Source: Myxococcota bacterium (GTDB lineage: Bacteria; Myxococcota_A; UBA796; GCA-2862545). Taken from it: a stretch of 25,338 nucleotides of DNA. Of this stretch, positions 6,597-24,358 are shown in pieces. Where the stretch lies: the NCBI GenBank assembly GCA_039208735.1, contig JBCCQY010000139.1, forward strand, positions 1 to 25,338. The letters run 5' to 3'. Within the stretch, counting starts at the first letter, position 1; every line of letters begins with the position of its first letter. The notes below the pieces were generated by a model. It was not told where the DNA came from. It saw only the letters and a list, made by a program, of their open reading frames with translations, and searched no databases. Made by a program: the position numbers and the translations under genes.

Positions 6597-6681
6597 CGGA
6601 TCGCCTTGGATCGGGACTCTGCGGACAGATCGTGGCCCCCCGCAACAGTAGACTAGGACTTCGCCTGTGGAGCGACCGGCC

Positions 6682-9600
6682 ATGTCATTCGTGCACCTTC
6701 ACGTGCATTCTCAATTCTCGATCCTCGACGGCACGCCAACCGTCGGGGCCCTTGCCGAGCGCGCGGCTTCGCTCGGCATGCCTGCCTTAGCGCTGACCGA
6801 CGTGGCCAACCTCTACGGGGCCGTGCAGTTCCATAAGGCGTGCAAGAAGTCCGACGTCAAGCCCATTCTTGGGGCCGAGCTGCACGTTCAGCCCGAAGGC
6901 ATCGACCACGAAGATCCGAATCGCGAAGAGGGTGGCTACCAGATCATCGCGCTCGTCGAAAACGAAGCGGGCTACCACAACCTCTGTAAGCTCGTCACGC
7001 GCGGCATCTTCGATGGCATGCACTACAAGCCGCGCGTCGCCGTCGAGTGGCTCCACGAGCTGTCGGAAGGGCTCATCGTCCTCACCGCAGGACTCAAGGG
7101 GGTGGTGGGCCGTACCCTCACCCGTTCCGGTCCTGATGCCACGGAGGCCGCGGTGGCGGCCCTTCAGGCGGGCCTCGGTCCCGATCAGCTCTACCTCGAG
7201 CTTCAAGACCACGGACTCCCGGGCCAGGTCGAGCTGAACGAACATGTCCGCGCACTGTCCGCGAAGCTGAGCGTTCCGCTGGTGGTCACCAACGCCGTGC
7301 ACTACCTCGACGCGCAAGACAGCGCCGTTCATGAGCTGCTGAACGCGATTTCCGCCGGTTGCAGCATGCGCGACGACCGCCGATTCGATGCCCCGACCGA
7401 CCAGGCGTACTTCAAGACCGAAGACGAGATGCGGGAGTTGTTTCCCGATGACGGCGAGGCCATTGAGCGCACGGCGATCATCGCCGAGCGCTGCAACTTT
7501 GAATTCGAGTACGGCAACTACCACTTTCCCGCGACCACGCCGCCTGACGTCAGCGAGTCCGACCCGCAGCCCGATACCGACGCCAACTGGGCCTACTTCT
7601 ATGAAGCGTTCCCTCCGGCAAAGGACTGGGGACTGCCGATCGACGGCACCATTCCTCCCAAGCCCGATGGCGCGGGCAACATCAACGGCTACTTCCGTTG
7701 GTACGCCAAACGAGGCCTCGAGGTTCGCCTTGAACGCATCGATCCGGCGATGCACGGCGAGTACTGGGATCGGCTCGAACACGAGCTGAACATCGTCCTC
7801 AAGATGGGCTTTCCGGCCTACCTGCTCATCGTTGCCGAGTTTATCAACTGGTCCAAAGACAACCTGATTCCGGTGGGGCCAGGCCGTGGATCGGCTGCAG
7901 GTTCACTAGCCGCGTGGGCGATGCGCATTACCGACATCGACCCCATCCGGTATGGGCTGCTGTTCGAACGGTTCCTCAACCCCGAACGCGTCAGCATGCC
8001 CGACATCGACGTCGACTTCTGCCAGGACCGGCGTGAAGAAGCGATCGAACACGTCCGCGAAAAGTACGGCGCGCCCCTCGTTTCACAGATCATCACGTAC
8101 GGCACGCTGAAGGCGAAAGCGGCGGTGCGGGACGTGGCCCGTGTGCTCGACCTGTCGTTCACCGAAGCCGACCGCATCGCCAAGTTGGTTCCCGATCAGC
8201 TCGGCATCAAACTGAAGGACGCGCTAGCCCAAGAACCTCGGCTCCGGGCACTTCGAGACGGCGATCCCAAGGTCCGGAGAGTTCTCGACATGGCGCTCGC
8301 CATTGAGGGCACCACCCGCCAGACGGGCGTTCACGCGGCGGGGGTCGTCATCGCCGACCGTCCCCTCGTCGAGTACGCCCCGCTGTACCGCGACGAGCCT
8401 GAGGGTGGCCCCGTCGTCCAGTACGACATGAAGAGCGCCGAAGACATCGGACTCATCAAGTTCGACTTCCTCGGGCTCAAGACGCTCGACCAGATTCGTG
8501 ACGCCCTGGCGCTCATCGAGCAAAACCATGGCATTGCCCTCGACATGGAGGCGTTGCCCGACGACGATCCGACGACCTACCAGATGCTCGAAACGGGCGA
8601 CGCGCTCGGCGTCTTCCAGCTCGAGTCCAGCGGCATGCGCGAGTTGCTTACGCGGCTCAAGCCCTCCGACATCAACGACATGGTCGCACTCGTGGCCCTG
8701 TACCGGCCGGGGCCGTTGCAGTCGGGCATGACCGACGACTACGTCGAGCGGAAGCACGGTCGAACGGCCGTCACCTTCGCACTGCCCGAGCTTGAGCCGG
8801 TGCTGAAGAACACCTACGGCACCATCATCTACCAAGAGCAGGTGATGCAGATCGCCCAGGTCATGGCTGGGTACTCACTCGGTGAAGCCGACCTGCTTCG
8901 CCGCGCGATGGGCAAAAAGAAGCAGTCCGAGATGGACAAGCAGCGTGTCCGCTTCTTGTCGGGGTCCATTGAAAACAAGATCGATGAGGAAAAGGCGGCC
9001 GAGATCTTCGATCTCATGGCAAAGTTCGCCGCCTATGGCTTCAACAAGAGCCACAGTGCGGCCTACGGCTGGATTGCGTACCAGACCGCCTACCTGAAAG
9101 CCCACTACCGGCCCGAATACATGGCCGCATTGATGACGATCGAAGCGGCGAATACCGACAAGGTGCTCGCCTACGTACTCGATTGTCGTCGCGCCGGCAT
9201 CGAGGTCATGCCAGTCTCGGTCAACCATTCTGAGAAACACTTCTCCGTTCCCAAGCCCGCCGACCGGCCCCGCGATGAAGAGGGCAACGTGATCGATCAG
9301 ATCCGGTTTGGCCTTGCGGCGGTCAAGAACGTAGGGAGCGGCGCGATCGATGCCATCCTCGAAGCCCGTGCCGACGGCCCCTTCGAAGATGCCTTCGCGT
9401 TTTTTGAGCGCATCGATCACAGCAAAGTCAACAAACGCGTGGTCGAGAACCTCGTGAAGGCCGGTGCGTTCGATGTGTTTGGCATCCCTCGCCGGGCGCT
9501 CCTCGAGGGTCTGGAGGCCGCGGTCACCCTGGGGGCTCGAGCCCAACGCGACCGTGAGGCAGGTCAGATCGGACTATTCGCGGGGTCCCCCAAAAGCCCC

Positions 9601-10266
9601 AAGTTCCGCTTCCCCGAACTTACCGAATGGCCGCTTGCGCAGAAGCTCGCCTCCGAACGAGAGGTGTTGGGCCTCTACCTCTCGGGACACCCCATGCAGG
9701 CCCACGGCGCCGATGTGGCCCGGTACGCAACGGCTACGCTGTCCGAACTCGCCGCGCACGCCGAAGCCGACGAGGTTCGCATCATCGCCATGAGCGTTGA
9801 CGTGCGCACCGTGCGCACCAAACGCAACGACAAAATGGCCTTCGTTCGCCTCGAAGATGCCAAGGCGTCCATCGAGAGTGTGTTCTTTTCCGAGCCGTGG
9901 GCCCGAAGCCAGCGAGCCATCGAGTCGGGCGAGCCGGTCCTCGTCACCGGCCAAGTCGAATTGACGGGCGACGAAGTGAAGTTTCGCGCACGCTCGGCCG
10001 AGTCTCTCACCGACGTCCGGGCGCGCATGACCCGGGAAGTTCGGTTCATCCTCGACTTGGATGACCTGAACGGCGACCGGCTCGACCAGTTCCGGGACCT
10101 GCTTCGGAGCCAGAAAGGCGGCTGTCGCAGCACCCTTGTGGTGAGGGCCGAAGGCCGCTTCGAGGCCGAATTGCAGCTTCCCGAGCTGCCCGTCGAACCG
10201 AGCCCCAACCTCGAGCAATGCGTCCAAGCCCTCTTCGGACGGCTCGACGTGGTCGCGCTATCGTAA
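6682..10266 (+). CDS. dnaE: DNA polymerase III alpha subunit (DnaE1 type)
   Basis: HLHVHSQFSILDG PHP start, GPGRGSAAGS, catalytic PDIDVDF, HAAGVVI, KFDFLGL, YGFNKSH, clamp-binding QIGLF and a C-terminal OB fold. Confidence 0.98.
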   Translation: MSFVHLHVHSQFSILDGTPTVGALAERAASLGMPALALTDVANLYGAVQFHKACKKSDVKPILGAELHVQPEGIDHEDPNREEGGYQIIALVENEAGYHNLCKLVTRGIFDGMHYKPRVAVEWLHELSEGLIVLTAGLKGVVGRTLTRSGPDATEAAVAALQAGLGPDQLYLELQDHGLPGQVELNEHVRALSAKLSVPLVVTNAVHYLDAQDSAVHELLNAISAGCSMRDDRRFDAPTDQAYFKTEDEMRELFPDDGEAIERTAIIAERCNFEFEYGNYHFPATTPPDVSESDPQPDTDANWAYFYEAFPPAKDWGLPIDGTIPPKPDGAGNINGYFRWYAKRGLEVRLERIDPAMHGEYWDRLEHELNIVLKMGFPAYLLIVAEFINWSKDNLIPVGPGRGSAAGSLAAWAMRITDIDPIRYGLLFERFLNPERVSMPDIDVDFCQDRREEAIEHVREKYGAPLVSQIITYGTLKAKAAVRDVARVLDLSFTEADRIAKLVPDQLGIKLKDALAQEPRLRALRDGDPKVRRVLDMALAIEGTTRQTGVHAAGVVIADRPLVEYAPLYRDEPEGGPVVQYDMKSAEDIGLIKFDFLGLKTLDQIRDALALIEQNHGIALDMEALPDDDPTTYQMLETGDALGVFQLESSGMRELLTRLKPSDINDMVALVALYRPGPLQSGMTDDYVERKHGRTAVTFALPELEPVLKNTYGTIIYQEQVMQIAQVMAGYSLGEADLLRRAMGKKKQSEMDKQRVRFLSGSIENKIDEEKAAEIFDLMAKFAAYGFNKSHSAAYGWIAYQTAYLKAHYRPEYMAALMTIEAANTDKVLAYVLDCRRAGIEVMPVSVNHSEKHFSVPKPADRPRDEEGNVIDQIRFGLAAVKNVGSGAIDAILEARADGPFEDAFAFFERIDHSKVNKRVVENLVKAGAFDVFGIPRRALLEGLEAAVTLGARAQRDREAGQIGLFAGSPKSPKFRFPELTEWPLAQKLASEREVLGLYLSGHPMQAHGADVARYATATLSELAAHAEADEVRIIAMSVDVRTVRTKRNDKMAFVRLEDAKASIESVFFSEPWARSQRAIESGEPVLVTGQVELTGDEVKFRARSAESLTDVRARMTREVRFILDLDDLNGDRLDQFRDLLRSQKGGCRSTLVVRAEGRFEAELQLPELPVEPSPNLEQCVQALFGRLDVVALS

Positions 10267-10292
10267 GAGCAGGGTACAGCGGGGGGAGTTCG

Positions 10293-11039
10293 ATGATCGG
10301 CTGGGCGGTCGTGGCGATCGCGAAGGACCCCACGGCGGTCGTGCAATCGCTCACCGACGAGGTGACGATCGATTGGACGAACCTCGAGGTCGAGGTGCAA
10401 GCCACCGCCCAGGCCCCGGCGGTGGGTTCCCTGCGGGCCATCGAGGAACTCGCCCGACAGAACATCGCCAAGACCTTGCAACGGGCGCTGCCAAGGGTCC
10501 CTCTGACGGCGACGATCGCACTGGGGGCCATTCAGACCGACCCCGTTCTTGACGCTCCCATCGCGGCCCGTCAGGCACGCTGGCAGGTCACGGAGGCCCA
10601 GTACGCCACGTCGGGCACCGTTCGGCTCACCGCAAGCCTGTCCCTCGCAAGCGTGGTCAAGCCGTGGGTGTTGGCCAACGCACTCCCCGAGGCCACCTCG
10701 GCCGTCGATCCACCGTTTACGGGCGTGCTTGTGGATGCGCGGGCTGTCGACGTGTCGATGGCCGTAGCCCCTCGCATCGTCACCGAGGACGGTGAAGTCC
10801 TGTTCGATGGTCGACTCGATGCGTTTTCCGCCGTCACACGAGCGCCCGTTCGGTACGTCGCCTCTCCCGCCCACCGCAGGGCCGATCAAGCCGGTGAACG
10901 GCCCTGGCGCCTTCTTGCTACGGCGGTTCAGTCCGAGGTGGATCTGATTGTGGCCGAGGTTGACCCAGCCGAACGGGCATCGGCGCTGCAGGTCCTCCAA
11001 TCGGGCGAAATCATCATCGTGGTCCGCGATGGCCGCTGA
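10293..11039 (+). CDS. Exported protein resembling LPP20-family-associated proteins
   Basis: GGGAG SD before ATG. Motifs IDWTN, FTGVLVDAR and PRIVTEDGEV. Sits in an operon between dnaE and lipB. Confidence 0.6.
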   Translation: MIGWAVVAIAKDPTAVVQSLTDEVTIDWTNLEVEVQATAQAPAVGSLRAIEELARQNIAKTLQRALPRVPLTATIALGAIQTDPVLDAPIAARQARWQVTEAQYATSGTVRLTASLSLASVVKPWVLANALPEATSAVDPPFTGVLVDARAVDVSMAVAPRIVTEDGEVLFDGRLDAFSAVTRAPVRYVASPAHRRADQAGERPWRLLATAVQSEVDLIVAEVDPAERASALQVLQSGEIIIVVRDGR

Positions 11040-11655
11040 TCTCGCCGTTCAGTGGTTAGGCCGCCTGTCCTTTGGCTGGGCCGAGCGGTTGCAACGCGGC
11101 CGCCGACGCAGCATCATCGCTGGCGTTGCCCCAGAAGTCCTCTGGCTACTCGAGCATGATCCCGTGATCACCTTGGGCCGTCGTGGTGGTGAGGTCTTGG
11201 CGAACCCTTCGATCCCCGTGGTGGCGACCGACCGCGGTGGACTCGCGACCTACCACGGCCCGGGCCAGCTCGTCGGATACCTGCTGGTCGACGTCGACGC
11301 ACGGCGATTGGGGGTTCGGCGACTCGTCGAAGCCATCGAGGACGGACTGATCGCCTGGCTCACCACGAAGGGGATCCTGGCCGACCGTCGACCTCATGCA
11401 CCTGGAGTGTGGGTTGGTGATCACAAGATCGCGGCGCTGGGCCTGCACTTTTCGCGTGGCGTGAGCATGCATGGCTTTGCCTTGAACCTCGAACCGCACC
11501 TCGCCGCCTACCAAGCGATCGTCCCCTGTGGCTTTTCAAGCGACCAGGTCACCTCGGTTGCCAAGTTGAAAGGCGGCTCCTGGCCCGTCTTCGATCACGC
11601 CGCTGACGTGGGGCAGTACGTGCGCGACGCCATCGTGTCGAAGCCAGGACCTTGA
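11029..11655 (+). CDS. lipB: Lipoyl(octanoyl) transferase LipB
   Basis: LEHDPVITLGRR, DRGGLATYHGPGQLVGY, KIAALG, HGFALN and IVPCG. Confidence 0.95.
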   Translation: MAADLAVQWLGRLSFGWAERLQRGRRRSIIAGVAPEVLWLLEHDPVITLGRRGGEVLANPSIPVVATDRGGLATYHGPGQLVGYLLVDVDARRLGVRRLVEAIEDGLIAWLTTKGILADRRPHAPGVWVGDHKIAALGLHFSRGVSMHGFALNLEPHLAAYQAIVPCGFSSDQVTSVAKLKGGSWPVFDHAADVGQYVRDAIVSKPGP

Positions 11656-11691: not shown

Positions 11692-11763
11692 AGGCTCGTA
11701 GCTCAGTGGGAGAGCACCGCCCTGACACGGCGGGGGTCCGCGGTTCAAATCCGCGCGAGCCTA
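11692..11763 (+). tRNA. tRNA-Val(GAC), CCA not encoded
   Basis: Cloverleaf: acceptor AGGCTCG/CGAGCCT, D stem GCTC/GAGC, anticodon stem CCGCC/GGCGG with GAC at 11724-11726, T arm CGCGG-TTCAAAT-CCGCG, discriminator A. Confidence 0.96.
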
Positions 11764-11766
11764 CTC

Positions 11767-11788: not shown

Positions 11789-11892
11789 CAATCGGCGCTC
11801 ACCCGCGCCAACGCCCCGACCCGGAAGTGTCTCGTGCGGTCTTGTCGCGTGGGCTATTCTGACCGTAGTTGCCTCCAACCGAGAGAGGGACT

Positions 11893-12555
11893 GTGCGCAG
11901 AGGACCCCGCCGCCGGCCCCAACAGGAGCCCGATCGCAACGAATTGCGGGTGAACCGACGGATCCGCGCTCCTCGGGTTCTCGTCATTGATGAGCAGGGG
12001 AACAAGCTGGGTGAGTTCCTCATCGAGGACGCGGTCCGGCTCGCCGAAGACCGTGGACTCGACCTGATCGAGGTCTCTCCCAACACCCGTCCCGTCGTGT
12101 GTCGCATCCAGGACTACGGCAAGCTCAAATACGAGCGCAAGAAGAAGGCCTCCCAAGCCCGAAAGAATCAGGTTCAGGTGCAGACCAAGGAAGTCAAGCT
12201 GCGCCCCAAGACCGACGACCATGACATCGCGGTGAAAGTTCGCCACTCCCGACGTTTCCTCGAGGAGGGCAACAAAGTCAAGGTGACCATCCGCTTCCGG
12301 GGACGGGAACTTGCTCACCGTGACATTGGGGCCCAGCAGTGCTTGCGGGTGGCCAAGGAGTGTGAGGATCTCGGCAACATCGAGATCCGACCTCGGATGG
12401 ACGGGCGGCAGATGTTCATGATCATCGCGCCCAACGCCAAGACTCGGGCTCGTGCGGTGGCCCGAGCCGAGCAGGCGGCCGCCGAAGGGGAAGTCGAAGA
12501 CGCGGCGGACGAAGGACTCGAAGATGACCTCGACGACGAGGCCGCGGAAGAGTAA
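11893..12555 (+). CDS. infC: Translation initiation factor IF-3 with acidic C-terminal extension
   Basis: RVNRRIRA, GLDLIEVSP, DYGKLKYE, KEVKLRPKT and KVKVTIRFRGRE. GAGGG precedes GTG 11893; in-frame TAG at 11866. Confidence 0.95.
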   Translation: MRRGPRRRPQQEPDRNELRVNRRIRAPRVLVIDEQGNKLGEFLIEDAVRLAEDRGLDLIEVSPNTRPVVCRIQDYGKLKYERKKKASQARKNQVQVQTKEVKLRPKTDDHDIAVKVRHSRRFLEEGNKVKVTIRFRGRELAHRDIGAQQCLRVAKECEDLGNIEIRPRMDGRQMFMIIAPNAKTRARAVARAEQAAAEGEVEDAADEGLEDDLDDEAAEE

Positions 12556-12568
12556 GTGCCGGGCTCCA

Positions 12569-12598
12569 TTGACGAGGGCCGGGCCACGTGGTTAGCCC
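12569..12598 (+). promoter_or_regulatory. Putative internal promoter for rpmI-rplT (TTGACG-N18-TAGCCC)
   Basis: Near-consensus -35 in the infC-rpmI gap. Confidence 0.35.
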
Positions 12599-12644
12599 AC
12601 ACCGGTCCGGGCACGCCACGGGTGTGCGTGCCCTCGGAGAAACC

Positions 12645-12842
12645 ATGCCCAAGATGAAGACCCACCGGGGCGCGGCCAAGCGCTTCAAGAAGACGGGTTC
12701 GGGTAAGATCCGCTTCAAGCGGGCCTTCCTGCGCCACTGCCTCGAGCAGCAGCCGAAGAGCGCAAAGCGTGTTCTGCGCAAGGCTGGCTACCTCTCGGGC
12801 GGCGATGCTCGCGCCATCCAGCGCAAGCTGCGCGGCGAGTGA
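12645..12842 (+). CDS. rpmI: 50S ribosomal protein L35
   Basis: MPKMKTHRGAAKRFKKTGSGK; GGAG SD. Confidence 0.97.
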   Translation: MPKMKTHRGAAKRFKKTGSGKIRFKRAFLRHCLEQQPKSAKRVLRKAGYLSGGDARAIQRKLRGE

Positions 12843-12937
12843 CCCTTCGGCGCCCCCGGCGCCCCCATCAACCCACCGTCACCGCCAGGTCGGATGAGCC
12901 GATCCAGGCTGGGAAGCGGTTTTAGAGGAGATGCCTC

Positions 12938-13294
12938 ATGGCTCGCATCAAGCGTGCTCAGATCCGGAAGACTCGCAAAAAGAACCTGTTCCGCCGCGTT
13001 CGGGGGTTTTTCCTAGGCCGCCGTCGCCTTCGTCAGGCCATCGAAGCCCGGATGAAGGCCGAGAAGCAGGAATTCATTGGCCGGAAGCTTCGTAAGCGGG
13101 ACTTCCGACGCCTTTGGACCCAGCGCATCAACGCCGCAGCCCGTCAGCACGGTCTGTCCTACTCGCGCTTCATCCACGGCCTGAAGACCGCAGGCGTGGA
13201 CGTGAATCGTAAAATGCTCGCTGACCTTGCGGTGAAAGAGCCGGCCGCCTTCCAGGCCCTCGTCGAGTGCGCAAAAACCGCCATCGCCAGCTGA
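12938..13294 (+). CDS. rplT: 50S ribosomal protein L20
   Basis: [27 protein letters not shown] and [17 protein letters not shown]. Confidence 0.97.
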
Positions 13295-13356: not shown

Positions 13357-13857
13357 ATGTGGTGGTGGTTGGTCCTGGCCTGCAACAACGAAGAGCCAGT
13401 TGCCGAGCGCGTCAACGCCGAAGAGCAAGATCTCATCGTACTGGTTCGCCAGGCCTGCACCGATGACGAAAGCGCCACCCTGTCGCTGCCGCTGTTGTCG
13501 AATGTGGGCCGAATTGAAATCGGGGTGGCCGAGGTCACGCCAGGGTGCGCATCCGTAGGTGACACCTACGTGCTCGACGTTGAACTCTTTGATGAGTTCG
13601 AAGAAGTCGTCGATGAAACCCAGATCATCGCGCTTCCTGAGGCGGTTAGCGACCTCGACGGGGATGGCATGATCGAGGCTCGCGACGCGGCGACCTACTT
13701 GTTGGTCCGCGATGAGTTCGACCCGGGCGTGTTCTCCATCATGCTCCAAGCGCTTGGCGCCGCAACGGAAGAGCGCGACGATCGGTGGCGCGTCGAACTC
13801 CTCGCCTTCCCCGAGGAGCCCGAAGACGAAGGTGGTGGCGGGCTGTTGGGCGGCTAG
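13357..13857 (+). CDS. Acidic putative lipoprotein with an EF-hand-like Ca-binding loop
   Basis: GGAG SD, lipobox-like VLAC at Cys9 and a DLDGDGMIEARD loop. Its stop overlaps the amnA stop in CTAG (13854-13857). Confidence 0.65.
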   Translation: MWWWLVLACNNEEPVAERVNAEEQDLIVLVRQACTDDESATLSLPLLSNVGRIEIGVAEVTPGCASVGDTYVLDVELFDEFEEVVDETQIIALPEAVSDLDGDGMIEARDAATYLLVRDEFDPGVFSIMLQALGAATEERDDRWRVELLAFPEEPEDEGGGGLLGG

Positions 13858-14768
13858 GCGATGACGTCTCGGTCGCCCGAGAACGCCTCGACCTCATCTT
13901 CGTCGAATTCCTTCTCACCAATTCCATCGTCGGAAGGGGTCAGGGCCACGACCGCGCCTCCGGTTCCGACCAGCGCCTCGTAGGCGAAGATCTCGCCTCG
14001 GTACCGGTTGTGCTGCCCCATCGCCGCCGACCAGAACCAAAACGACTTGAAGTTCTGGACCTTGGGCACACGAATCTGCTGGTGCACAACACGAGACAGC
14101 TGTGCGGCGTCCTCGAGCCGACCCTCGCCCAAGAATTCCAAGAGCTTCGCATTCCATTCTTCATCTTTGGCAGAATGAATGCGATCTTCGGACGGGTCGA
14201 TCCAATCGGTAAACAACCGATTCGATAGGGTGCCCACCACGATGACGGCGACGCGACGACCCGCCGCACTTGCCGCATCGCGGCACGCCTTGCCCAGCAC
14301 GATGGTCTCCCCGCGGTCCGCGTACACATTGCTGCTCACAATGACCGCAGGAATTGCGTTGTCGGGATTTAGGAGCTTGAGGGCGACCACCGAGCCCGTG
14401 TCGATGGGAAAGCCATGGTAGGCGACGGTTCGCATGTGAAGTCCGCGCTCGGTTCCCGCCTTAGCCAACGTGTCGGCGAACGCCGCATCGATCCGAAACT
14501 GGTAGGGAATGCTGCCGAGGTCGTGAAAGAGTTCGTCAACATGGACCCACTCGGGCGTGGGGTGCGCCTGGATCTGGTGGCCAATCACCGACGGCCACAT
14601 GGTCGAATACACCAGTAGGACGTCTGGTTTTTGGGCCAGGACATGCTGGCGAGCGGCTTCGAAGCCTTCCCGGAGTCGCGTGTAGCCTGCGCTCTTCTCG
14701 GGACAGAGCAGGGGATGCGGAAGCCCGGGCACGAGCACCCCGACAACCGGACGGTCGGTCTCCTCCAT
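13854..14768 (-). CDS. amnA: 2-aminophenol 1,6-dioxygenase alpha-subunit-like (non-catalytic LigB fold)
   Basis: LVPGLPHP, KPDVLLVYSTMW, HVDELFHDLG, GFPIDTG and IDPSEDRI match AmnA/CnbCa motifs as recalled. TGATG coupling to amnB. Confidence 0.85.
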   Translation of the reverse strand: MEETDRPVVGVLVPGLPHPLLCPEKSAGYTRLREGFEAARQHVLAQKPDVLLVYSTMWPSVIGHQIQAHPTPEWVHVDELFHDLGSIPYQFRIDAAFADTLAKAGTERGLHMRTVAYHGFPIDTGSVVALKLLNPDNAIPAVIVSSNVYADRGETIVLGKACRDAASAAGRRVAVIVVGTLSNRLFTDWIDPSEDRIHSAKDEEWNAKLLEFLGEGRLEDAAQLSRVVHQQIRVPKVQNFKSFWFWSAAMGQHNRYRGEIFAYEALVGTGGAVVALTPSDDGIGEKEFDEDEVEAFSGDRDVIA

Positions 14769-15655
14769 CACGCACGCTCCGCGGGGGGAGCCCAGCCCAC
14801 CACGGCGTTGCCCGTGCCAATGACGGTGCCATAGCCAAACAGCTCGCCTGGGTAGGTGGGGTAATCGAGGGCTGCGATCAACCACGTGAGCGCGCCGGAG
14901 TCGGTCTCGGCCACCGCGTGTTCCGTGAACTCGGGCATGAGGTCGACGATCTGCCGCGTTTGACCTTTGCGCATCAGCTCGATGAGCTTCATGTCCCAGA
15001 GGTACTGGTGGTGGTTGGTGATGTGCTCGTGCGTCATGTCCTCGGGAACATCCGGCTCAACCACGAAGTGACGATGCGACAGGGACTCGCTCGCCAACAA
15101 GACCACCTTGCGGTCGCTCTCCTCGATGGCCTTGCGGGTGGCTTTCCCCAACGCGACCATCTGCTCCTGCATGACCTCGACGCTGTAGAAGTGGGTGGCC
15201 CGCTGCGACGACACAGCCACGATCGGCTTGTCGAACTCTGGCCGGGTGAGGTGGCAGCTCACCAACGTGCCGTAGTCGACTCGAAAATCGGGATTCCGCA
15301 TCATCTTGGTCACCAGCCCCGCTTCGCCAGCCGATGCGCACAGCTGCTCGGCGAGCGGCACATCCACCTTCAACTTGTAGTGGTAGCGAAACAGGTTGGG
15401 AAACACAGGATCGACCGACAACGAGTCGAACTCGGGCACTCCCAAGAAGTGGGTTCCGATATAGGTCTGCCAGTGGGGTGAAAGTACGACGATGGTGTCG
15501 TAGTCGATGCCGTCAAGCACCTGCCGCAGGCGTTCATAGCCCCAGCGCAACGTTTCCCAGCCGCATTCCGCCGATGGTTCGTTTTGCGGTGGATTGTCGG
15601 CGTAGACGAGGTGCGGAGGATGCGGCGCGAGCGCGCCATAGACGATGCGTCCCAT
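14768..15655 (-). CDS. amnB: 2-aminophenol 1,6-dioxygenase beta (catalytic) subunit-like
   Basis: APHPPHLVYADNPPQNEP, SPHW, SVDPVFPNLFR, TKMMRNPDFRVDYGT, LSH and GYGTVIGTGNAV. Fe ligands His/His/Glu and catalytic His/Tyr are present. Confidence 0.9.
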   Translation of the reverse strand: MGRIVYGALAPHPPHLVYADNPPQNEPSAECGWETLRWGYERLRQVLDGIDYDTIVVLSPHWQTYIGTHFLGVPEFDSLSVDPVFPNLFRYHYKLKVDVPLAEQLCASAGEAGLVTKMMRNPDFRVDYGTLVSCHLTRPEFDKPIVAVSSQRATHFYSVEVMQEQMVALGKATRKAIEESDRKVVLLASESLSHRHFVVEPDVPEDMTHEHITNHHQYLWDMKLIELMRKGQTRQIVDLMPEFTEHAVAETDSGALTWLIAALDYPTYPGELFGYGTVIGTGNAVVGWAPPAERA

Positions 15656-15657
15656 GC

Positions 15658-16794
15658 TCAATCCTTCTCGACAGGGGGCAAATGGTCTTCCCAGTCCCAA
15701 TACCAGCGGTCCGAATCGGGATCCCACTCGTCCCAGGTGGCTACGTGCGAGAGCAATTCCACGCGGTCAGGAGGCACAATGCCGGGCACAAAGAACGCTT
15801 TTTGGCGATGGAGCGGGTAGGGATTCCGAAGTTCAAATCCCAAAACCCCCAGGATGGCGCGGGCCACGTACCAGGTGGCCTGGGGATTCCACCCGTGCGC
15901 AATCTTGACGGCAACGCCAAGCCCATCCGGGTAGTCGGGGTGGACGATCGCCATGCCAAGCAGCCCGTCGGCCCCCTCCTTGGCGATGATGTTGCCCTTA
16001 CCGGCCTTGATCACCGTCGAGTCGAGTCGGTTGAAGCCGCCCACGAGATCAGGGTGCTGGGTCATCGCCGACCAGATCCAATCGTCATCGCGGGTGCGCA
16101 CCAAGCCCGCAAAGCAGCGGGCCAGCTCGGTCACGGTGTTGGAAACGGTGGGCAAGCCACACCCGTCGCGCGCGACCCGCAAGGGGGTCCACTCCGGACC
16201 GAGGAAGCACCGGAGCTGGTTGATGAACGCAGGAAACAGCGGGTGTGACGGCATTGTATAGGCGACCCGGGGCCAACCCTTCTTACGGCAGGCATGAAGG
16301 ATCGCGGCATGCTCCCCCGAACAGGTGTGGTACCAACGGCGCGGCCGCCGGACCTGTCGGCCGAACTGCACAAGCGGCACATCCAGCGGTGTGCGCATGA
16401 GGCCCCGTTCGGAAGGCGTGAGCAACGATTGGGCGGCCCGGACATGTTCGGTGTCGCCGTTGTGGCTCGCCACGGCAATCGCGTGCTGCTCGGTGGTGCA
16501 GTCCTTCAGCTCATCGACGAAGATCTTCATCGTCAGCGGCTTCATCATCGAACGGCCGTAGCAAAGCACATTGCCGCCGAACGAGTGCACCACCCGATCC
16601 CCACTCACCCAGGCCACCGCGCCGTGGATGGTGGTCTCGCTCACGCCGTTTCGACGGTAATCGACGAGCGGTTCCCACTCGACATCCCGACCTGTCGCGA
16701 TCCCTTTGATGGACTCCCCAAAGGGAGACATGGGGTAGATCGCCCGTCCTGGGCGCCCCGTCGTCACCGCACTGGGCCGATGATCATCGCTCAC
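15658..16794 (-). CDS. Class 3 (Rhizobium etli-type, asparaginase II family) hydrolase with altered motif
   Basis: RSMMKP (SxxK), ASHNG, TCSGEH, DGCGLP and AKEGADG. GGAGG lies 6 nt before GTG 16794, which overlaps the kynB end. Confidence 0.85.
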   Translation of the reverse strand: MSDDHRPSAVTTGRPGRAIYPMSPFGESIKGIATGRDVEWEPLVDYRRNGVSETTIHGAVAWVSGDRVVHSFGGNVLCYGRSMMKPLTMKIFVDELKDCTTEQHAIAVASHNGDTEHVRAAQSLLTPSERGLMRTPLDVPLVQFGRQVRRPRRWYHTCSGEHAAILHACRKKGWPRVAYTMPSHPLFPAFINQLRCFLGPEWTPLRVARDGCGLPTVSNTVTELARCFAGLVRTRDDDWIWSAMTQHPDLVGGFNRLDSTVIKAGKGNIIAKEGADGLLGMAIVHPDYPDGLGVAVKIAHGWNPQATWYVARAILGVLGFELRNPYPLHRQKAFFVPGIVPPDRVELLSHVATWDEWDPDSDRWYWDWEDHLPPVEKD

Positions 16795-17437
16795 GCAGAT
16801 CCTCCAATTGGCCGCCATCATCCCTTAGGACCGCCCGAACCGGGGACGCATCAACGCCCACCAAAGGCAACGGAAGTGCGACCAGGGTGTAGATCCCAGG
16901 CTCGACGTGGTCAAGCACGACCCCCTCGAGGATCGCTAGGTCGTGGCGTGCAATCGCGTTGTGGGAAAGCAGCTCTCGGTCATCGCACAGGTCCACCGAC
17001 GGGGTGTCCAGTCCCACCAACACGACGCCATGACCGACCAAATGCTCGATCAGCTCGGGCGATAGGGCAGCGAAGTCTTCGTTGAAGACCTGCGGGTCGG
17101 GGTAGGTGCCCGTGCGGAAGAGCACGCGCGAAGCCTTGGGCGCATGCGGCAAGTGGGCAGGTTGAATGCGGGTGTTGCGGGGTACGTTCACCGCCATCAC
17201 CTCACAGGGACCGAAGTAGCGTTCGAGCGGACGAGCCGCGATGCCCTGCCCGTCGCGGGCGTAGTGATTCGGGGCGTCGGTATGGGCGCCCACATGCACG
17301 GTGGTGCGGATGGATGACAGCGTCAGGTTGTCGCCCTTGGCCATCGACAACGCAACGTCTCGGGAAAACCCAACATCACCCGGCCAAACGGCAATCTTGT
17401 CGTCGATGGGAGGCGAAATGTCGATGAGGCGTGTCAT
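16784..17437 (-). CDS. kynB: Cyclase-family kynurenine formamidase
   Basis: DISPP, VWPGD, HVGAHTDAPNH metal motif, GLDTPSVD, ILEG and DASPVRAVLR. ATGA overlap with the RidA gene. Confidence 0.85.
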   Translation of the reverse strand: MTRLIDISPPIDDKIAVWPGDVGFSRDVALSMAKGDNLTLSSIRTTVHVGAHTDAPNHYARDGQGIAARPLERYFGPCEVMAVNVPRNTRIQPAHLPHAPKASRVLFRTGTYPDPQVFNEDFAALSPELIEHLVGHGVVLVGLDTPSVDLCDDRELLSHNAIARHDLAILEGVVLDHVEPGIYTLVALPLPLVGVDASPVRAVLRDDGGQLEDLRER

Positions 17438-17865
17438 GGAATCCAGGCGATGCACTTGAGTTCGACAGCGATGGGCGTCGGTAACGCTCGCACCGCCACC
17501 GTCGTCCGCGTCGGCCGATATGGGCCGATGAGTTCGGCGTAGACTTCGTTGAACGCCTTGAAGTCGCGGTCCATATCGACCAAGAACACCGTGATGTCGA
17601 CCAGGTTGGCAAGGGTGGCTCCGGATGCCTTGAGCACCGCCTCGAGGTTCGCCACCACCGCACGGGTCTGCGCGGCGACATCATAGTCCAGCGGCTGGCC
17701 GGCGGCGTCTCGAATGGGGCCGCCGGGAATCGCATCGGTGCCCGGCTGCCGAGGCCCCATGCCAGACAAAAACAGCATTGGGCCCACTTGGCGCGCGTGG
17801 GGGTACGCCCCGACTGGAGCCGGGGCCCCTTGGGCGTCGACAGCCCGAGAATCCGAATCGCTCAC
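17434..17865 (-). CDS. RidA-family protein, 2-aminomuconate deaminase (AmnD/NbaF)-like
   Basis: PVGAYPHAR, LSGMGPRQPG, RTTV (catalytic Arg) and LPTPIAVELK. Has the extended loop typical of the aminomuconate deaminase subgroup. GGAGAGG SD. Confidence 0.85.
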   Translation of the reverse strand: MSDSDSRAVDAQGAPAPVGAYPHARQVGPMLFLSGMGPRQPGTDAIPGGPIRDAAGQPLDYDVAAQTRAVVANLEAVLKASGATLANLVDITVFLVDMDRDFKAFNEVYAELIGPYRPTRTTVAVRALPTPIAVELKCIAWIP

Positions 17866-17889: not shown

Positions 17890-18315
17890 TTACCAGCTGC
17901 CCACGTTGGGCATCGAGGCCCACGGCTCTCGGATCTCGAGCGCTCCGCCACGTTGGAGCAGTTCAATCGAGATCGCATCCGGGCTGCGAACGAAGGCCAT
18001 TCGCCCGTCACGCGGCGGCCGCGCGATGGTGACGCCGTTTTCTTGAAGCTTCGTACACAAGGCGTAGATGTCGTCGGTCGCAAAGGCCAAATGGCCAAAG
18101 TTGCGGCCGCCCGTGTATGGCTCCTCCTGATCCCAGTTGTAGGTCAACTCGATCATCGCCGAGTCGTCCTCTTGGCCCGTTGCGAGAAAGACGAGGGTGT
18201 ATCGTCCCTTCTCACTCTCACTGCGCCGAACCTCGCGCAGGCCAAGCAAGTCGCAAAAGAAGTGTAGGGCCTGGTCGAGGTCACGCACGCGGATCATCGA
18301 GTGTAGGAATCGCAT
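17890..18315 (-). CDS. gloA: Lactoylglutathione lyase (glyoxalase I, VOC family)
   Basis: [23 protein letters not shown] and [21 protein letters not shown]. Confidence 0.9.
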
Positions 18316-18348: not shown

Positions 18349-21300
18349 TCAGTTCTGACCCACCGGATGGTGCTCGGAGGAGGGCACCTCCTGGTCGCCA
18401 GCGGGGGTGATCTCGTCGAAGACGACCTTGCCATCTCGCACCACAGCGTGCAATGCACGGCGCTTCTGGCCCGTGCGCAGCATCGAAGCCCCCAAGGGCT
18501 CCGCGACCAACTCGTCGATTGCCCGCAAGGCAGGCCGAGCCCCCATGCCGGCTCCGCCGACGCTGCTCGCCGGTTGGTAGCGCGCACAGAGTTCGGCCAC
18601 CTCTTCCGACCAGGTAAGCGTGATGCCGGTGAGGGCCGCGCGCTCCTGGAGCTGGGTGAGGTGGATGCTGACAATCTTGACCAGGTCGGCTTCTTCGACA
18701 TCGCGGAACACGACCACCCCGTCGAGCCGATTGAGCAGCTCGGGACGGAAGCGGTCCTGGGCCTTCGCCATGACCGCAGCCTTGCGAGAAGCCACGGTGT
18801 TGCCACCAAAACCGAGGCGTCCCTTCCCAGACACTTCCGAACCCGCGTTGGTGGTCAGGATGAAGAAGGCTTCGCGCGCATGCACCTTGCGGCCTTCAGC
18901 ATCGGTGACCACGCCTTCATCGAAGAGCGACAGGAACATCGCCTGCACATCAGGGTGCGCCTTTTCGAACTCGTCGAGCAGCACCACCGCGTAGGGACGG
19001 CGCCGTAGCGGCCCCGTGAGCTGGCCCTCTTCGCCGTGGCCCTGGTAGCCCGGAGGCGCCCCCAAGAGGCGACTGCTCGTGAACCGATCGCCGTACTCGG
19101 ACATGTCGAGCTTGACGAGCGCGTTTCCTTCGGGGAACAGGAAGTCCGTCAGGGCGCGAGCGAGTTCGGTCTTGCCAACCCCACTGGAGCCCGCGAACAG
19201 GAAGACGCCACGAGGACGCCGCGGATGACGAAGACCTGAACGCGCGAGACGCACTGCCGATGCGAGCTCGGACACGGCGTCTTCTTGGCCAATCACGCGA
19301 GCGCGCAGGAAGTCTTCGAGCGAATCGAGTCGTTCGCGTTCCGCCGCGGTCAGATCGTGAACCGGCACGCTCGTGCGCTCGCTGACGATGCGAGCCACCC
19401 GCTGGCCATCGACGACATGCGGTTCTGCCCCGAGGCTTACGTCCGCACACGCTTCATCCATGAGGTCGAGCGCCTTGTCGGGCAGGCGCCGTTCAGGCAC
19501 GAAGCGCACCGCAAGTCGTACACAAGCTTCGATCGCATCTCGCGTGATGCTGACCTTGTGATGCTCTTCGTACAGGTGCTTGATCCGCAGCAGCAGCTCC
19601 ATGGCCTCTTCGACCGAAGGCTCCTCCACCGGAATCGGCTGGAAGCGACGTTCGAGAGCCGAATCGGTTTCGAAGTGCTTGCGGTACTCTGCCACCGTGG
19701 TGGCGCCGATGACCGTGACCTCGCCGCGCGCGAGCGCCGGCTTGAGGATGTTGGCGGCATCAAGCGAGCCCCCTTCGGTGCGCCCCGCTCCCACCAAGGT
19801 GTGGATCTCATCGATGAAGAGCACGATGCCGGGATTCTCGCGCGCCTCGCGGATGATGTCCTTGAGTCGCTCTTCGAAGGTGCCCCGGTACTTTGTGCCC
19901 GCGAGCAACGAACCCATCGAAAGCTCGATGAGGCGCAGGTTCTTAAGGCGTTCCGGAGCATCTTCGGCGGTGAGCGCCTGCGCCACGCCTTCGACAATCG
20001 CGGTCTTGCCGACCCCTGGGTCGCCGAGAAGGAGCGGATTGGCCTTGAGTCGACGCACCAGCGTCTTCATGACGGCTCGGATCTCGCCCGAACGACCGAC
20101 GACCGGCGACAACTTGCCCGATCGCGACAGCGCCGTCAGGTCACGACCCTGCTCATCGAGCGTCGGCGTCGGGGATTCGCCCTCTTCATCGCTTGATTCA
20201 GGTTGGAGATTCTGCTCGCAGAACGCCTTTCCTTCGCGCGCAAACTGGCTGTCAGGCTCGATTTCGAGGGCCTTGTTCCACAGGGGAAGTGCCTCACGGT
20301 AGCGCTGCAGCGTGTTGAGCGCGGCCGCCTTGCCTTGGATCGCAAAGGCATGCCGAGACCCAACCTCGAGGGCCCGATCGAACCACACCAAGCAACCCGG
20401 CAGGTCGCCCAGCATGCGCATGCACTCGGCCCGCCCCGCAATCGCGTAGAGGTAGTCGTCCTTCAGCTTGAGGGCGCGCTCATACGCCTTGATCGCCTCT
20501 TCGTACCGCTCGTTCTTGCGGTAGGCCTCGCCGATGTTGGTGGCGGCGTGGAAGTGATCCGGATCGATGACGAGGCAACGCTCATAGGCCTCAATCGCCT
20601 TGTCGAGCTGCTTGTCTTCTTCGTAGGCCATGCCCAGCCGCAGCGCGGCTTCGGCGTAGGTGTCGTCGTAGCGAAGGGCTTCTTCGAAACAGGTGATGGC
20701 CTGCGAGAAGTTCCGCTCCTTGAAGAAGATGCGGCCCCGGTCCAGTTCATCACGGGCTCGCACGCGATCCGTCCGGGAGCGAGGACCGGCGAGACTGGTA
20801 GGCGGCGCCGCCATCGGCAACGCAGGTTCGTCGCGCCGTCCCGGCCCTGCAGGGCTCTGGCCAATGCGCCGTCGCGGAGCGCTGGTGATCGTTCGATCGG
20901 GCGCCGACTCCCCAAGACCCGCCCGACACTGGGCCAATCCGCGCTTCACGAAAGCCGCATTTGGGTTCTCGCGCAGGGCCGCAAGCCACAACGGCAGGGC
21001 TTCATCGAAGCGTCGCAGCGAATTCAGCGTCGCCGCCTTCCCACACAAGGCCAGGTAGTGACGAGGGCGGAGGACCAGCGTGCGGTCAAAACCATCCAGG
21101 GCTTCCTGGAACCGTCCCAACATTCGTAGGGCCTCGGCGCGGCCCGCCGTGGCCCGTACCTCGTCAGGACGCAGCTGGATCACCTCATCATAGGCTTCGA
21201 TCGCCGCGAGGAAGTCGTTGTTGCGCCGAAGTGCATCCGCACGATGGCACGCCGCATCGAGGTGATCCGGCTCGCGTTGCAACACTTCGTCGAAAGCCCG

Positions 21301-22335
21301 AATCGCCGCACGATACTGCCGATCTTCGCTGTGGGCGAGGCCCAGCAAGTACCACGCACTCGTCCAACTCGGATCCTCTTCGGTGGCGTGGCGAAGTGAG
21401 GTGGCCGCCTCGGGGAAGCGGCCCTGCTGCATGAGCGACCGCCCCTGCTCATAAGGCCCTCGCGCCCGATCCCGGGCTCCCGCCCGCACATCGACCGCGC
21501 GGTCGACCGATTCGCCAGACACGGATTCGCCCGCGAGAGCGGCTTCGGCTCGCTTGAGACCGAGCACCGCAGCCTGAGCGCTGGGCTCGATGGCCAAGGC
21601 CTGCCGCCAGATGGGAAGCGCCTCCGCCCACCGTCCCAGCTCATTGAGCGCTGACGCCTTGCCCCGAAGCGCTACCACATGGGTTGGACGCCCTTGGAGG
21701 GCGCGAGAGTACCATTCGACCGCATCGTCGAACCGTCCCTGTTGTCGCAGCGCATCAGCCCGGCCGGTCATCGCTCGGACATGTTCGGGCCGCTGGGCGA
21801 TGGCCCGGTCGTAGTCCGCCACGGCCTCGTCGAACCGCGCCGCCTGACGCAGCACGTCGGCCCGACCCACGAGCACGTCGGGATCATCTCCCAACGCCTT
21901 CAACAGCCGCCCGTAGGTGGAGACGGCCTGATCAAACCGCCGCATCCGCTCATAGACGCGTGCCAGATCGGCGAGTACGTCCTCATCGTTCGGCGAGATG
22001 GCCAACGCGGCCTCGAACGCCTCGGCAGCTTCGGCGGCGCGTCCGTCGGCGGCGAGCGCCCGCCCCCAGTTGCGCTGGGACTCCGCGCGGACCCGGTCCG
22101 GATCGGCGGGAGGAGGTACCGTGACGCGCCGACCGGTGCGCAACCCGTCCCGCGCCTCGGTCAGCCCGGCGGTTGCAAACGCCGACTCCGGATCGAGAGC
22201 GGCCGCCTGTTCCCACAACGCAATCGCGGGGCCGAACTGGCCAAGTGCGTTGAGAGCCGCCGCCTTTCCGCGCACCGCAAAGGTGTGCTCAGGCGACTTG
22301 GCGAGCGCCCGGTCGAACCATTCGAGCGCGGCCCT
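18349..22335 (-). CDS. TPR-array fused Clp/Hsp100 double-ring AAA+ ATPase (ClpA-like), 5'-truncated at the junction
   Basis: At least 16 complete TPRs. D1 has GDPGVGKT, GTKYRG, FIDEIH, ALERRF and LPDKALDL. No M-domain. D2 has GSSGVGKT, PPGYQG, LLDEFEKAH and RPELLNR, plus an LGF loop. The upstream limit is approximate. Confidence 0.9.
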   Translation of the reverse strand, partial: RAALEWFDRALAKSPEHTFAVRGKAAALNALGQFGPAIALWEQAAALDPESAFATAGLTEARDGLRTGRRVTVPPPADPDRVRAESQRNWGRALAADGRAAEAAEAFEAALAISPNDEDVLADLARVYERMRRFDQAVSTYGRLLKALGDDPDVLVGRADVLRQAARFDEAVADYDRAIAQRPEHVRAMTGRADALRQQGRFDDAVEWYSRALQGRPTHVVALRGKASALNELGRWAEALPIWRQALAIEPSAQAAVLGLKRAEAALAGESVSGESVDRAVDVRAGARDRARGPYEQGRSLMQQGRFPEAATSLRHATEEDPSWTSAWYLLGLAHSEDRQYRAAIRAFDEVLQREPDHLDAACHRADALRRNNDFLAAIEAYDEVIQLRPDEVRATAGRAEALRMLGRFQEALDGFDRTLVLRPRHYLALCGKAATLNSLRRFDEALPLWLAALRENPNAAFVKRGLAQCRAGLGESAPDRTITSAPRRRIGQSPAGPGRRDEPALPMAAPPTSLAGPRSRTDRVRARDELDRGRIFFKERNFSQAITCFEEALRYDDTYAEAALRLGMAYEEDKQLDKAIEAYERCLVIDPDHFHAATNIGEAYRKNERYEEAIKAYERALKLKDDYLYAIAGRAECMRMLGDLPGCLVWFDRALEVGSRHAFAIQGKAAALNTLQRYREALPLWNKALEIEPDSQFAREGKAFCEQNLQPESSDEEGESPTPTLDEQGRDLTALSRSGKLSPVVGRSGEIRAVMKTLVRRLKANPLLLGDPGVGKTAIVEGVAQALTAEDAPERLKNLRLIELSMGSLLAGTKYRGTFEERLKDIIREARENPGIVLFIDEIHTLVGAGRTEGGSLDAANILKPALARGEVTVIGATTVAEYRKHFETDSALERRFQPIPVEEPSVEEAMELLLRIKHLYEEHHKVSITRDAIEACVRLAVRFVPERRLPDKALDLMDEACADVSLGAEPHVVDGQRVARIVSERTSVPVHDLTAAERERLDSLEDFLRARVIGQEDAVSELASAVRLARSGLRHPRRPRGVFLFAGSSGVGKTELARALTDFLFPEGNALVKLDMSEYGDRFTSSRLLGAPPGYQGHGEEGQLTGPLRRRPYAVVLLDEFEKAHPDVQAMFLSLFDEGVVTDAEGRKVHAREAFFILTTNAGSEVSGKGRLGFGGNTVASRKAAVMAKAQDRFRPELLNRLDGVVVFRDVEEADLVKIVSIHLTQLQERAALTGITLTWSEEVAELCARYQPASSVGGAGMGARPALRAIDELVAEPLGASMLRTGQKRRALHAVVRDGKVVFDEITPAGDQEVPSSEHHPVGQN

Positions 22336-22405
22336 GGACCCTTGCCTCGATTTCGGGGAAGTTGCCGAGGTATATAACGCCGCCTGGTCCCAAGGGAAAG
22401 ACCCG

Positions 22406-23080
22406 ATGCGCTGGATCATTCTGCTCTTTCTGGCGGCGACGCTGGCGCCCACGCAATCGCAGGCCGAGGGTGAGCGGGCGGGCGACTTCGACTATTATGT
22501 GCTGGCGTTGTCCTGGTCGCCGAGCTTTTGTGCGCTGGAAGGCGCGGCGCGCGGCAACCCGCAATGCGACCGGTCTTTGGGCTGGGTGATGCACGGGCTT
22601 TGGCCTCAATATGACATGGCCTCAAGTAGCGAAGCGGTAGGCCAAAGAAATGGCGGTTGGCCGAGTTACTGCCCCACCGTCCACCGCAACCCATCCCGTG
22701 CAGACACCGCAGCCATGGCCGATATCATGGGCTCTGGCGGGTCCGCCTGGCACCAGTGGAACAAGCACGGCCGCTGCACGGGGCTCTCGTCAGACGATTA
22801 CTACGCCCTGTCGCGGCTGGCCTTCGATCGGGTCAACCGGCCCGAGGTGCTGCGCCGGCTCGACCGCTCGGTCACGCTGCCCGCCGCGGTGATTGAAGAG
22901 GCGTTTCTCGAGGCCAACTCTGGCTGGACCTCGGACATGCTCACCATCACCTGCAAAGGCGGCCGCATCGCCGAGGCGCGGCTGTGCCTCACCCGCGACC
23001 TCACCCCGCGCCCCTGCGCCGCCGACGTGCGCCGTGACTGCCGGGCCACCGACGCGCTGCTTGATCCCATCAACGAGTAG
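22406..23080 (+). CDS. Ribonuclease T2 family, secreted
   Basis: Signal peptide, FDYYVLALSWSP, CAS I HGLWP, CAS II HQWNKHGRC and conserved Cys residues. Confidence 0.93.
   Translation: MRWIILLFLAATLAPTQSQAEGERAGDFDYYVLALSWSPSFCALEGAARGNPQCDRSLGWVMHGLWPQYDMASSSEAVGQRNGGWPSYCPTVHRNPSRADTAAMADIMGSGGSAWHQWNKHGRCTGLSSDDYYALSRLAFDRVNRPEVLRRLDRSVTLPAAVIEEAFLEANSGWTSDMLTITCKGGRIAEARLCLTRDLTPRPCAADVRRDCRATDALLDPINE
22616..22651. repeat. Short palindromic element inserted in-frame in RNase T2
   Basis: TGGCCT...AGGCCA inverted repeat around GCGAAGC. Adds about 12 residues (MASSSEAVGQRN) after HGLWPQYD. Confidence 0.55.

Positions 23081-24283: not shown

Positions 24284-24358
<75 letters not shown>

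Follow-up and report, generated by a model that had tools for sequence, protein, structure and literature searches.

A conserved nine-gene set suggests a kynureninase-free route from tryptophan to 2-aminophenol in Myxococcota-like bacteria and Marine Group II archaea

In the described kynurenine pathway to 2-aminomuconate, tryptophan 2,3-dioxygenase (TDO) and kynurenine formamidase (KynB) are followed by kynurenine 3-monooxygenase (KMO), kynureninase (KynU), 3-hydroxyanthranilate dioxygenase (HAO/NbaC), 2-amino-3-carboxymuconate semialdehyde decarboxylase (ACMSD/NbaD), 2-aminomuconate semialdehyde dehydrogenase (AMSDH/NbaE) and a deaminase (NbaF). A second group of described systems, those for 2-aminophenol meta-cleavage, comprises amnBACD... 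of Pseudomonas sp. AP-3 and Burkholderia xenovorans LB400, CnbCab of Comamonas and the ARO microcompartment locus (structures PDB 3vsg, 8ihg, 7txy and 6izh), and the natural source of 2-aminophenol for the aminophenol dioxygenases of unpolluted habitats is stated to be unknown in the available part of the publication on the ARO microcompartment (PMC10470539). Here we analyse a stretch of 25,338 nucleotides from a Myxococcota bacterium (contig JBCCQY010000139.1 of assembly GCA_039208735.1; the whole stretch is called the window), in which five coupled genes code for a Rid-family protein, KynB, a class 3 asparaginase homologue and the two subunits of a 2-aminophenol 1,6-dioxygenase, AmnB and AmnA. 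Together they make up half of a conserved set of nine genes, with the order TDO–SDR–LLM–asparaginase–semialdehyde dehydrogenase–AmnB–AmnA–Rid–KynB, where LLM stands for luciferase-like monooxygenase and SDR for short-chain dehydrogenase/reductase, the semialdehyde dehydrogenase being an aldehyde dehydrogenase (ALDH). Tryptophan catabolism without kynureninase seems well supported by this gene set, and we lean, with somewhat better than even confidence, towards a Baeyer-Villiger oxidation of kynurenine by LLM and subsequent hydrolysis by the asparaginase homologue to aspartate and 2-aminophenol.

The neighbourhoods of the asparaginase homologue were compared in the best 80 (69–90% identical) of at least 559 relatives, with flanks of up to 10 kb, many of these loci, which come from Myxococcota-like bacteria and Marine Group II archaea, being clipped by contig ends. 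LLM is present in 74 of the 80 loci, an ALDH of the muconic-semialdehyde type in 70, amnB in 63, amnA in 58, SDR in 57, rid in 56, kynB in 14, TDO in two and, in archaeal loci, an alpha/beta hydrolase in 40. Given the counts for amnB, amnA, rid and kynB, the linkage seen in the window is not due to chance, and its conservation in other genomes, which the preliminary description of this locus had proposed to check, was confirmed. Scans with LLM (505 relatives) and with an asparaginase homologue from Bdellovibrionales (580 relatives) widened the range to Planctomycetota, Holophagaceae, Bdellovibrionales and others: 77 LLM loci contain asparaginase (67), amnB (51), kynB (24) and TDO (12), and 75 new loci from the Bdellovibrionales query contain LLM (69), amnB (46), kynB (31) and TDO (29), with no recurrent enzyme gene beyond the nine among these 75. 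The three locus sets (80, 77 and 75) partly overlap and their counts are not additive.

The full gene order recurs among the loci, L303 and L126 being examples of a complete nine-gene operon. In several bacterial phyla the nine genes form a single operon, opened by TDO and closed by KynB in records of Myxococcota, Holophagaceae and Planctomycetota, and most of the set is also present in Marine Group II archaea. LLM lies directly upstream of the asparaginase gene in most relatives; in the host (G000; 9.4 Mb, 288 contigs, completeness 92.7%, contamination 6.15%), whose closest named relatives are Myxococcota/Deltaproteobacteria metagenome assemblies, it is found on a separate contig, in a coupled run with SDR and ALDH (Table 1). 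The same two-part split occurs in three related metagenome-assembled genomes (L002/L111, L003/L115 and L005/L116), and both halves lie a few kb apart, ordered as in the window, in L035, L039, L077 and L120; therefore, the split is a lineage feature and not contamination. Marine Group II loci (L012, L022, L050, L054, L062 and others) are without kynB and have an alpha/beta hydrolase gene upstream of SDR, whose product may be a eukaryote-type kynurenine formamidase. We also observed panB inside the archaeal cluster in 54 of the 80 loci.

The five window genes, all on the minus strand, have exactly the ends and the four junctions first described: rid and kynB meet in ATGA (rid TGA 17436–17434, kynB ATG 17437), kynB and the asparaginase gene overlap by 11 bp (kynB TGA 16786–16784, asparaginase GTG 16794, with GGAGG 7–11 nt upstream of this start), a 2-bp gap separates the asparaginase gene from amnB (asparaginase TGA 15660–15658, amnB ATG 15655), and amnB and amnA share TGATG (amnB TGA 14770–14768, amnA ATG 14768). 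The five proposed identities were also borne out by family and structure searches. KynB scores 212 bits against TIGR03035, slightly below the cut-off of 223, and matches solved kynurenine formamidases along the entire sequence (PDB 4cog, E 3.4e-43), including the metal motif HVGAHTDAPNH; with TDO, also encoded in the host, it provides the first two enzymes of the canonical pathway. AmnB and AmnA, adjoining and both of LigB type, are homologous to the solved enzymes (PDB 3vsg_B, E 5.7e-110; 3vsg_A, E 2e-44). The Fe ligands (H13/H62/E251) and second-sphere residues (Y129/H195) given for CtAPD in the available part of its description (PMC5291488) correspond to H12, H61, E250, Y128 and H194 of AmnB, invariant in 40/40 clade members.

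As in 2-aminophenol meta-cleavage, homologous AmnB and AmnA thus stand with a semialdehyde dehydrogenase and a Rid deaminase, and the five AmnB active-site residues are kept. Unlike the classical enzymes, the present AmnB belongs to a separate clade (about 55% identical to classical members) with an invariant arginine, R195; clade (n = 40) and classical sequences (n = 80) agree at 106 positions conserved to at least 90%, and differ at six conserved ones. The present set is tied to TDO, KynB, LLM and the asparaginase homologue, whereas in the best 80 of 353 classical amnB loci, which served as specificity control, asparaginase, LLM, TDO and kynB are all absent within about 8 kb. These classical-type amnBA loci (L107 of genome G051, L218–L297; 353 relatives) occur among environmental Gammaproteobacteria, Alphaproteobacteria and Binatia and are not accompanied by tryptophan genes. 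The natural role for AmnAB that had been suggested is backed, at the level of predicted function, by its linkage to tryptophan genes.

Among 201 genomes of the phylum with completeness of at least 85%, the asparaginase clade occurs in 28 (65–75% identity, distinct from ordinary class 3 matches at 28–35%), LLM in 29 and AmnB in 30, with the three together in 26. Thirty genomes are carriers, defined by at least two of these three; four are partial, three of them (G166, G186 and G111) with the cluster clipped by a contig end, the fourth being G171. Genome G051 falls outside the 30, having only classical-type AmnAB (54%; L107), beside which stands what we take, from its translation, to be a phenol hydroxylase subunit. 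TDO is present in 28 of the 30 carriers against 61 of the 171 other genomes (89/201 overall), and KynU, HAO and KMO in 0/30, the same searches being positive in 38, 34 and 33 other genomes, respectively. In the host, searches with the canonical genes of relatives gave no match for KynU, HAO or ACMSD at 1e-8, and KMO was not found, its closest matches being merely 26–27% identical; ACMSD, searched in the host and the loci only, is in neither. The five archaeal carriers examined all have TDO, elsewhere in the genome as in the host, and neither KMO nor kynU above the cut-off. The TDO count, the 0/30 for kynU, KMO and HAO, and the classical amnB loci (0/80 with asparaginase or LLM) are the basis of the kynureninase-free reading. 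The lack of kynU, nbaC/HAO and nbaD/ACMSD, first noticed in the run of genes, thus extends to the whole host genome, and the suggested link to tryptophan and kynurenine is upheld by the linkage of TDO and KynB and by the TDO profile; KMO, which had been expected to accompany the set, is missing from the host, the 30 carriers and the five archaeal carriers alike.

The known top steps end in kynurenine and the known bottom steps start from 2-aminophenol, which leaves one oxygenase and one beta-aspartyl hydrolase for the conversion between them. Kynurenine is an aminoaryl beta-aspartyl ketone. Oxygen insertion with aryl migration and then ester/amide hydrolysis would be ordinary chemistry for both enzymes, and AmnAB would keep its known substrate; for these reasons we favour the following route, whose reactions we infer from the genes, linkage, distribution, folds and residues observed. 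TDO and KynB would produce kynurenine, in line with their family functions. Oxidation of the aryl ketone by the FMN-dependent LLM, in which the electron-rich 2-aminophenyl group would migrate, would then give O-(beta-aspartyl)-2-aminophenol, which by general chemistry may undergo an O-to-N shift to N4-(2-hydroxyphenyl)-asparagine. In the asparaginase homologue, whose machinery is conserved, the alpha-amino acid end would be bound like Asn in ReAV, and 2-aminophenol and aspartate would be released through a beta-aspartyl-Ser82 intermediate. By known family reactions, AmnAB would form 2-aminomuconate semialdehyde, the semialdehyde dehydrogenase 2-aminomuconate, and the Rid deaminase 2-oxohex-3-enedioate and NH3; the non-canonical SDR might, most likely, reduce 2-oxohex-3-enedioate to 2-oxoadipate.

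If LLM, the hydrolase and AmnAB do the conversion, three enzymes would replace four (KMO, KynU, HAO and ACMSD). The proposed route shares with the kynurenine pathway its entry (TDO and KynB) and its exit (semialdehyde dehydrogenase, deaminase and, in locus L213, also the same SDR), and differs from it in that LLM, the asparaginase homologue and AmnAB stand in place of the genes not found. It would be free of pyridoxal phosphate (PLP), with the C4 unit leaving as aspartate, the predicted co-product, and not as alanine and CO2, and without quinolinate. Hydrolysis of an N-acyl-aminophenol amide had been offered as an alternative; once LLM is considered, which lies outside the window and had no part in the preliminary description, the favoured ester/amide hydrolysis comes close to it.

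The asparaginase homologue shares 22–25% identity with the class 3 L-asparaginases ReAV and ReAIV of Rhizobium etli (PF06089; PDB 7os3, 8cly and 9g66). The class 3 fold, the Ser48-Lys51 and Ser80-Lys263 tandems, Arg47 and Asp187 are all present, and the homologue differs by K138 → E, Q54 → T/M/L and N134 → T/C, by N- and C-terminal extensions and by its fixed place in a catabolic operon. The zinc site (Cys135/Lys138/Cys189) is incomplete in the clade, with both Cys in 41/42 members and Lys138 replaced by Glu in 41/42 and Gln in 1/42. Its predicted function is that of a beta-aspartyl-2-aminophenol hydrolase, and the earlier idea that it removes the beta-aspartyl group as aspartate is backed by the conserved machinery and the linkage; the class 3 scaffold has likely been adapted to aryl leaving groups. 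LLM (PF00296) has the luciferase TIM-barrel fold, of the FMN rather than the F420 type, which is also that of class C Baeyer-Villiger monooxygenases (diketocamphane monooxygenases and the progesterone LLM of Caenibius tardaugens). Its place recalls the aryl-ketone Baeyer-Villiger monooxygenase and esterase pairs (4-sulfoacetophenone, Comamonas KF-1), in which an oxygenase gene is directly followed by a hydrolase gene and then by ring-cleavage genes for the phenol, although the oxygenase of Comamonas KF-1 is reportedly of type I rather than an LLM. In the literature searched, none of these luciferase-fold and aryl-ketone Baeyer-Villiger enzymes is described as acting on an amino acid such as kynurenine.

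Several observations weigh against Baeyer-Villiger oxidation followed by hydrolysis. No solved luciferase-like enzyme is more than 20% identical to LLM; the fold also covers epoxidases (RslO1 is a proposed one), sulfonatases and others and does not specify Baeyer-Villiger chemistry, and a flavin reductase is absent from the operon, one being encoded elsewhere in the host (G000:C41:57891-58328). The clade has K138E at the zinc position where K138A reduces the kcat of ReAV from 416 to 4.8 per s. Genome G171 (90% complete; L104/L105, G171:C1:201525-232278) has SDR-LLM, AmnBA-Rid-KynB and TDO, but an asparaginase-clade gene was not found in it; a TDO match is absent in carriers G096 and G163, and a close SDR orthologue occurs in five genomes without any other genes of the set. 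Furthermore, 27 of the 30 carriers belong to the class of the host, whose non-carriers are also without kynU, and the anticorrelation is therefore neither independent evidence nor an independent statistical test. The main result on this side is R195, next after the catalytic His in 40/40 clade AmnBs and in 0/80 classical ones (Y/W/H/F/L; W or L in three solved enzymes), since this residue could hold a carboxylate group of some larger substrate, for instance 3-hydroxykynurenine.

R195 bears directly on a reading in which the ring is cleaved before the side chain is lost: LLM would 3-hydroxylate kynurenine, AmnAB would open 3-hydroxykynurenine, and the asparaginase homologue would cut the beta-aspartyl group off the ring-opened beta-enamino ketone (retro-Claisen C-C hydrolysis), giving aspartate and 2-aminomuconate semialdehyde. 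Stoichiometry, gene set and the two O2 steps would be the same, the ring of kynurenine is activated towards hydroxylation ortho to its amine, and breakage of C-C bonds in meta-cleavage products is known from serine hydrolases. Nevertheless, AmnB is otherwise near the solved 2-aminophenol enzymes in the positions compared above, purified aminophenol dioxygenase is not known to accept 3-hydroxyanthranilate, and aromatic hydroxylation is not known as typical of luciferase-fold monooxygenases. The ring-opened product would also be prone to cyclise, as 2-aminomuconate semialdehyde does to picolinate (available parts of PMC4539516 and PMC10470539), and we consider this sequence of reactions rather unlikely. 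Hydrolysis of a ring-cleaved product, one of two options first put forward, stays a real rival, with LLM instead of KMO as the 3-hydroxylase. The other option, in which the asparaginase homologue splits 3-hydroxykynurenine directly into 2-aminophenol and aspartate, would fit the gene set and the conserved beta-aspartyl machinery, but it is not favoured and seems very improbable: an aryl carbanion leaves very poorly, the Friedel-Crafts hydrolases described so far require phloroglucinol-type activation, the hydroxyl group of 3-hydroxykynurenine is meta to the acyl carbon, and KMO was found in none of the genomes named above, while LLM allows the simpler insertion of oxygen into the aryl-C(O) bond before ester/amide hydrolysis.

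The same enzymes could also act in another order, LLM oxidising N-formylkynurenine, the hydrolase freeing aspartate and 2-formamidophenol, and KynB or, in archaea, the alpha/beta hydrolase deformylating the latter to 2-aminophenol. The position of kynB at the end of the operon beside rid, its travelling with the lower-pathway genes in the window, the score of KynB a little under the TIGR03035 cut-off and the inability of a formylated amine to cyclise onto the ester would all suit this order; however, the alignment of KynB with solved kynurenine formamidases spans the whole protein and N-formylation reduces aryl migratory aptitude, which makes this order quite unlikely. A different concern is that the set is not a kynurenine route at all and that it degrades another aminoaromatic, or contains a plain asparaginase, TDO and KynB being mere neighbours, since TDO lies elsewhere in the genome in the host and the archaea and is common in the phylum, and the hydrolase was not found in G171. 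We regard this as unlikely, because TDO comes first and KynB last in one operon in three groups (Myxococcota, Holophagaceae and Planctomycetota), several carriers (G014, G050, G066, G146 and G166) keep an ordinary class 3 asparaginase beside the clade, and the hydrolase clade is almost never far from LLM (74/80 and 69/75 loci).

Downstream of 2-aminophenol cleavage, the Rid protein has a 2-aminomuconate deaminase (AMD) as its best PDB match (6izh, E 2.4e-25) and shares 51% identity with its counterpart in a canonical SDR-ALDH-Rid-HAO-ACMSD-KynU operon (L213); it is thus a Rid-fold protein with an AMD as nearest solved relative and its gene beside that of a semialdehyde dehydrogenase, as befits a deaminase. 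The SDR lacks the classical YxxxK motif and has S-N-T-x-R instead, with N162 and R165 invariant in 33/33 sequences, and among the solved proteins closest to it is the bacilysin enzyme YwfH, which reduces the C=C bond of an unsaturated 2-oxo acid. The canonical operon of L213 (L213:249-6630, G001:C31) starts with a 47% identical SDR and a 37% identical one follows KMO in L212 (L212:3038-6545), so the SDR likely acts after both routes converge. This Tyr-less SDR (SN-x-x-R type) is a candidate reductase after 2-aminomuconate deaminase in both, its product being perhaps 2-oxoadipate. Unlike in 2-aminophenol meta-cleavage, where the AmnE/F/G route is known (available part of PMC4539516), the AmnE/F/G/H (decarboxylase, hydratase, aldolase) genes were not recognised in the host at its 92.7% completeness: no TIGR03217 match lies above the cut-off, no 4-oxalocrotonate decarboxylase/hydratase model matched five of its six FAA-hydrolase-family matches (the sixth being a 66-position fragment), and no such genes are recurrent across the loci; the SDR is present in their stead.

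The remaining features of the window are given in Table 1. The glyoxalase I-like gene, 24 bp upstream of rid, is linked in just 3/80 related loci and is therefore placed outside the set; the gene for the tetratricopeptide repeat (TPR) protein lies a further 33 bp upstream of it. The two tRNA-Val(GAC) genes, 12.6 kb apart, flank the cluster, and GC content is flat across the window. The N-formylglutamate amidohydrolase family gene is not among the recurrent neighbours of the set, and the 166-aa open reading frame (ORF) is convergent with amnA, with a 4-bp overlap. Further housekeeping ORFs are, as we take from their translations, infC and rplT.

Table 1. Positions of the genes of the set and of other features; positions without a contig name refer to the window.
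Feature	Position	Strand	Family or structure match
Rid-family protein, predicted 2-aminomuconate deaminase (AmnD/NbaF-like), 143 aa	17434..17865	-	PF01042; PDB 6izh
KynB kynurenine formamidase (cyclase family), 217 aa	16784..17437	-	PF04199; TIGR03035; PDB 4cog
Class 3 (Rhizobium-type) asparaginase homologue, distinct clade, 378 aa	15658..16794	-	PF06089 (E 4.4e-49)
AmnB, catalytic beta subunit of 2-aminophenol 1,6-dioxygenase, 295 aa	14768..15655	-	PDB 3vsg_B
AmnA, alpha subunit of 2-aminophenol 1,6-dioxygenase, 304 aa	13854..14768	-	PDB 3vsg_A
SDR, LLM and ALDH, coupled run (host, outside the window)	G000:C102:8476-11956; LLM at 9276-10502		
TDO (host, outside the window)	G000:C109:7707-8735		
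Housekeeping genes, including DNA polymerase III alpha and lipoyl ligase	6667-10266, 10948-11655, 11869-13294	+	
tRNA-Val(GAC)	11692-11764	+	
166-aa ORF	13357-13857	+	no Pfam match
Glyoxalase I-like gene	17890-18315	-	TIGR00068 (114 bits, cut-off 120)
1367-aa ORF, long TPR array fused to a ClpA/B-type double AAA module	18349-22452	-	AAA, AAA_lid_9, AAA_2
N-formylglutamate amidohydrolase family gene	23204-24064	-	PF05013
tRNA-Val(GAC)	24284-24358	+	

In the literature searched, which excluded subscription papers and supplements, there is no description of a kynureninase-free route via 2-aminophenol, and the route goes unmentioned in the available parts of a 2026 review (PMC13151070) and of a 2026 preprint on the steps after 2-aminomuconate (10.64898/2026.06.05.730449). 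Two of its predicted enzyme activities, a kynurenine Baeyer-Villiger monooxygenase and a beta-aspartyl-aminophenol hydrolase, are probably new. We consider it slightly more likely than not that the set encodes a third aerobic and PLP-independent way to dismantle kynurenine, through a luciferase-like Baeyer-Villiger monooxygenase and a repurposed class 3 asparaginase, with the Tyr-less SDR as 2-oxohex-3-enedioate reductase to 2-oxoadipate, and that a large clade of AmnAB enzymes naturally serves in it, the clade being found in myxobacteria-related bacteria, Holophagaceae, Planctomycetota, Bdellovibrionota and also Marine Group II archaea. If so, one of the best-studied amino-acid pathways would have an extra route with two new enzyme activities, and there would be a candidate for the step after 2-aminomuconate deamination. 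Marine Group II archaea, which are abundant uncultured protein degraders, would gain a tryptophan route overlooked by standard annotation. Tryptophan would then supply 2-aminophenol in nature, which would give a native role to enzymes familiar from the degradation of pollutants.

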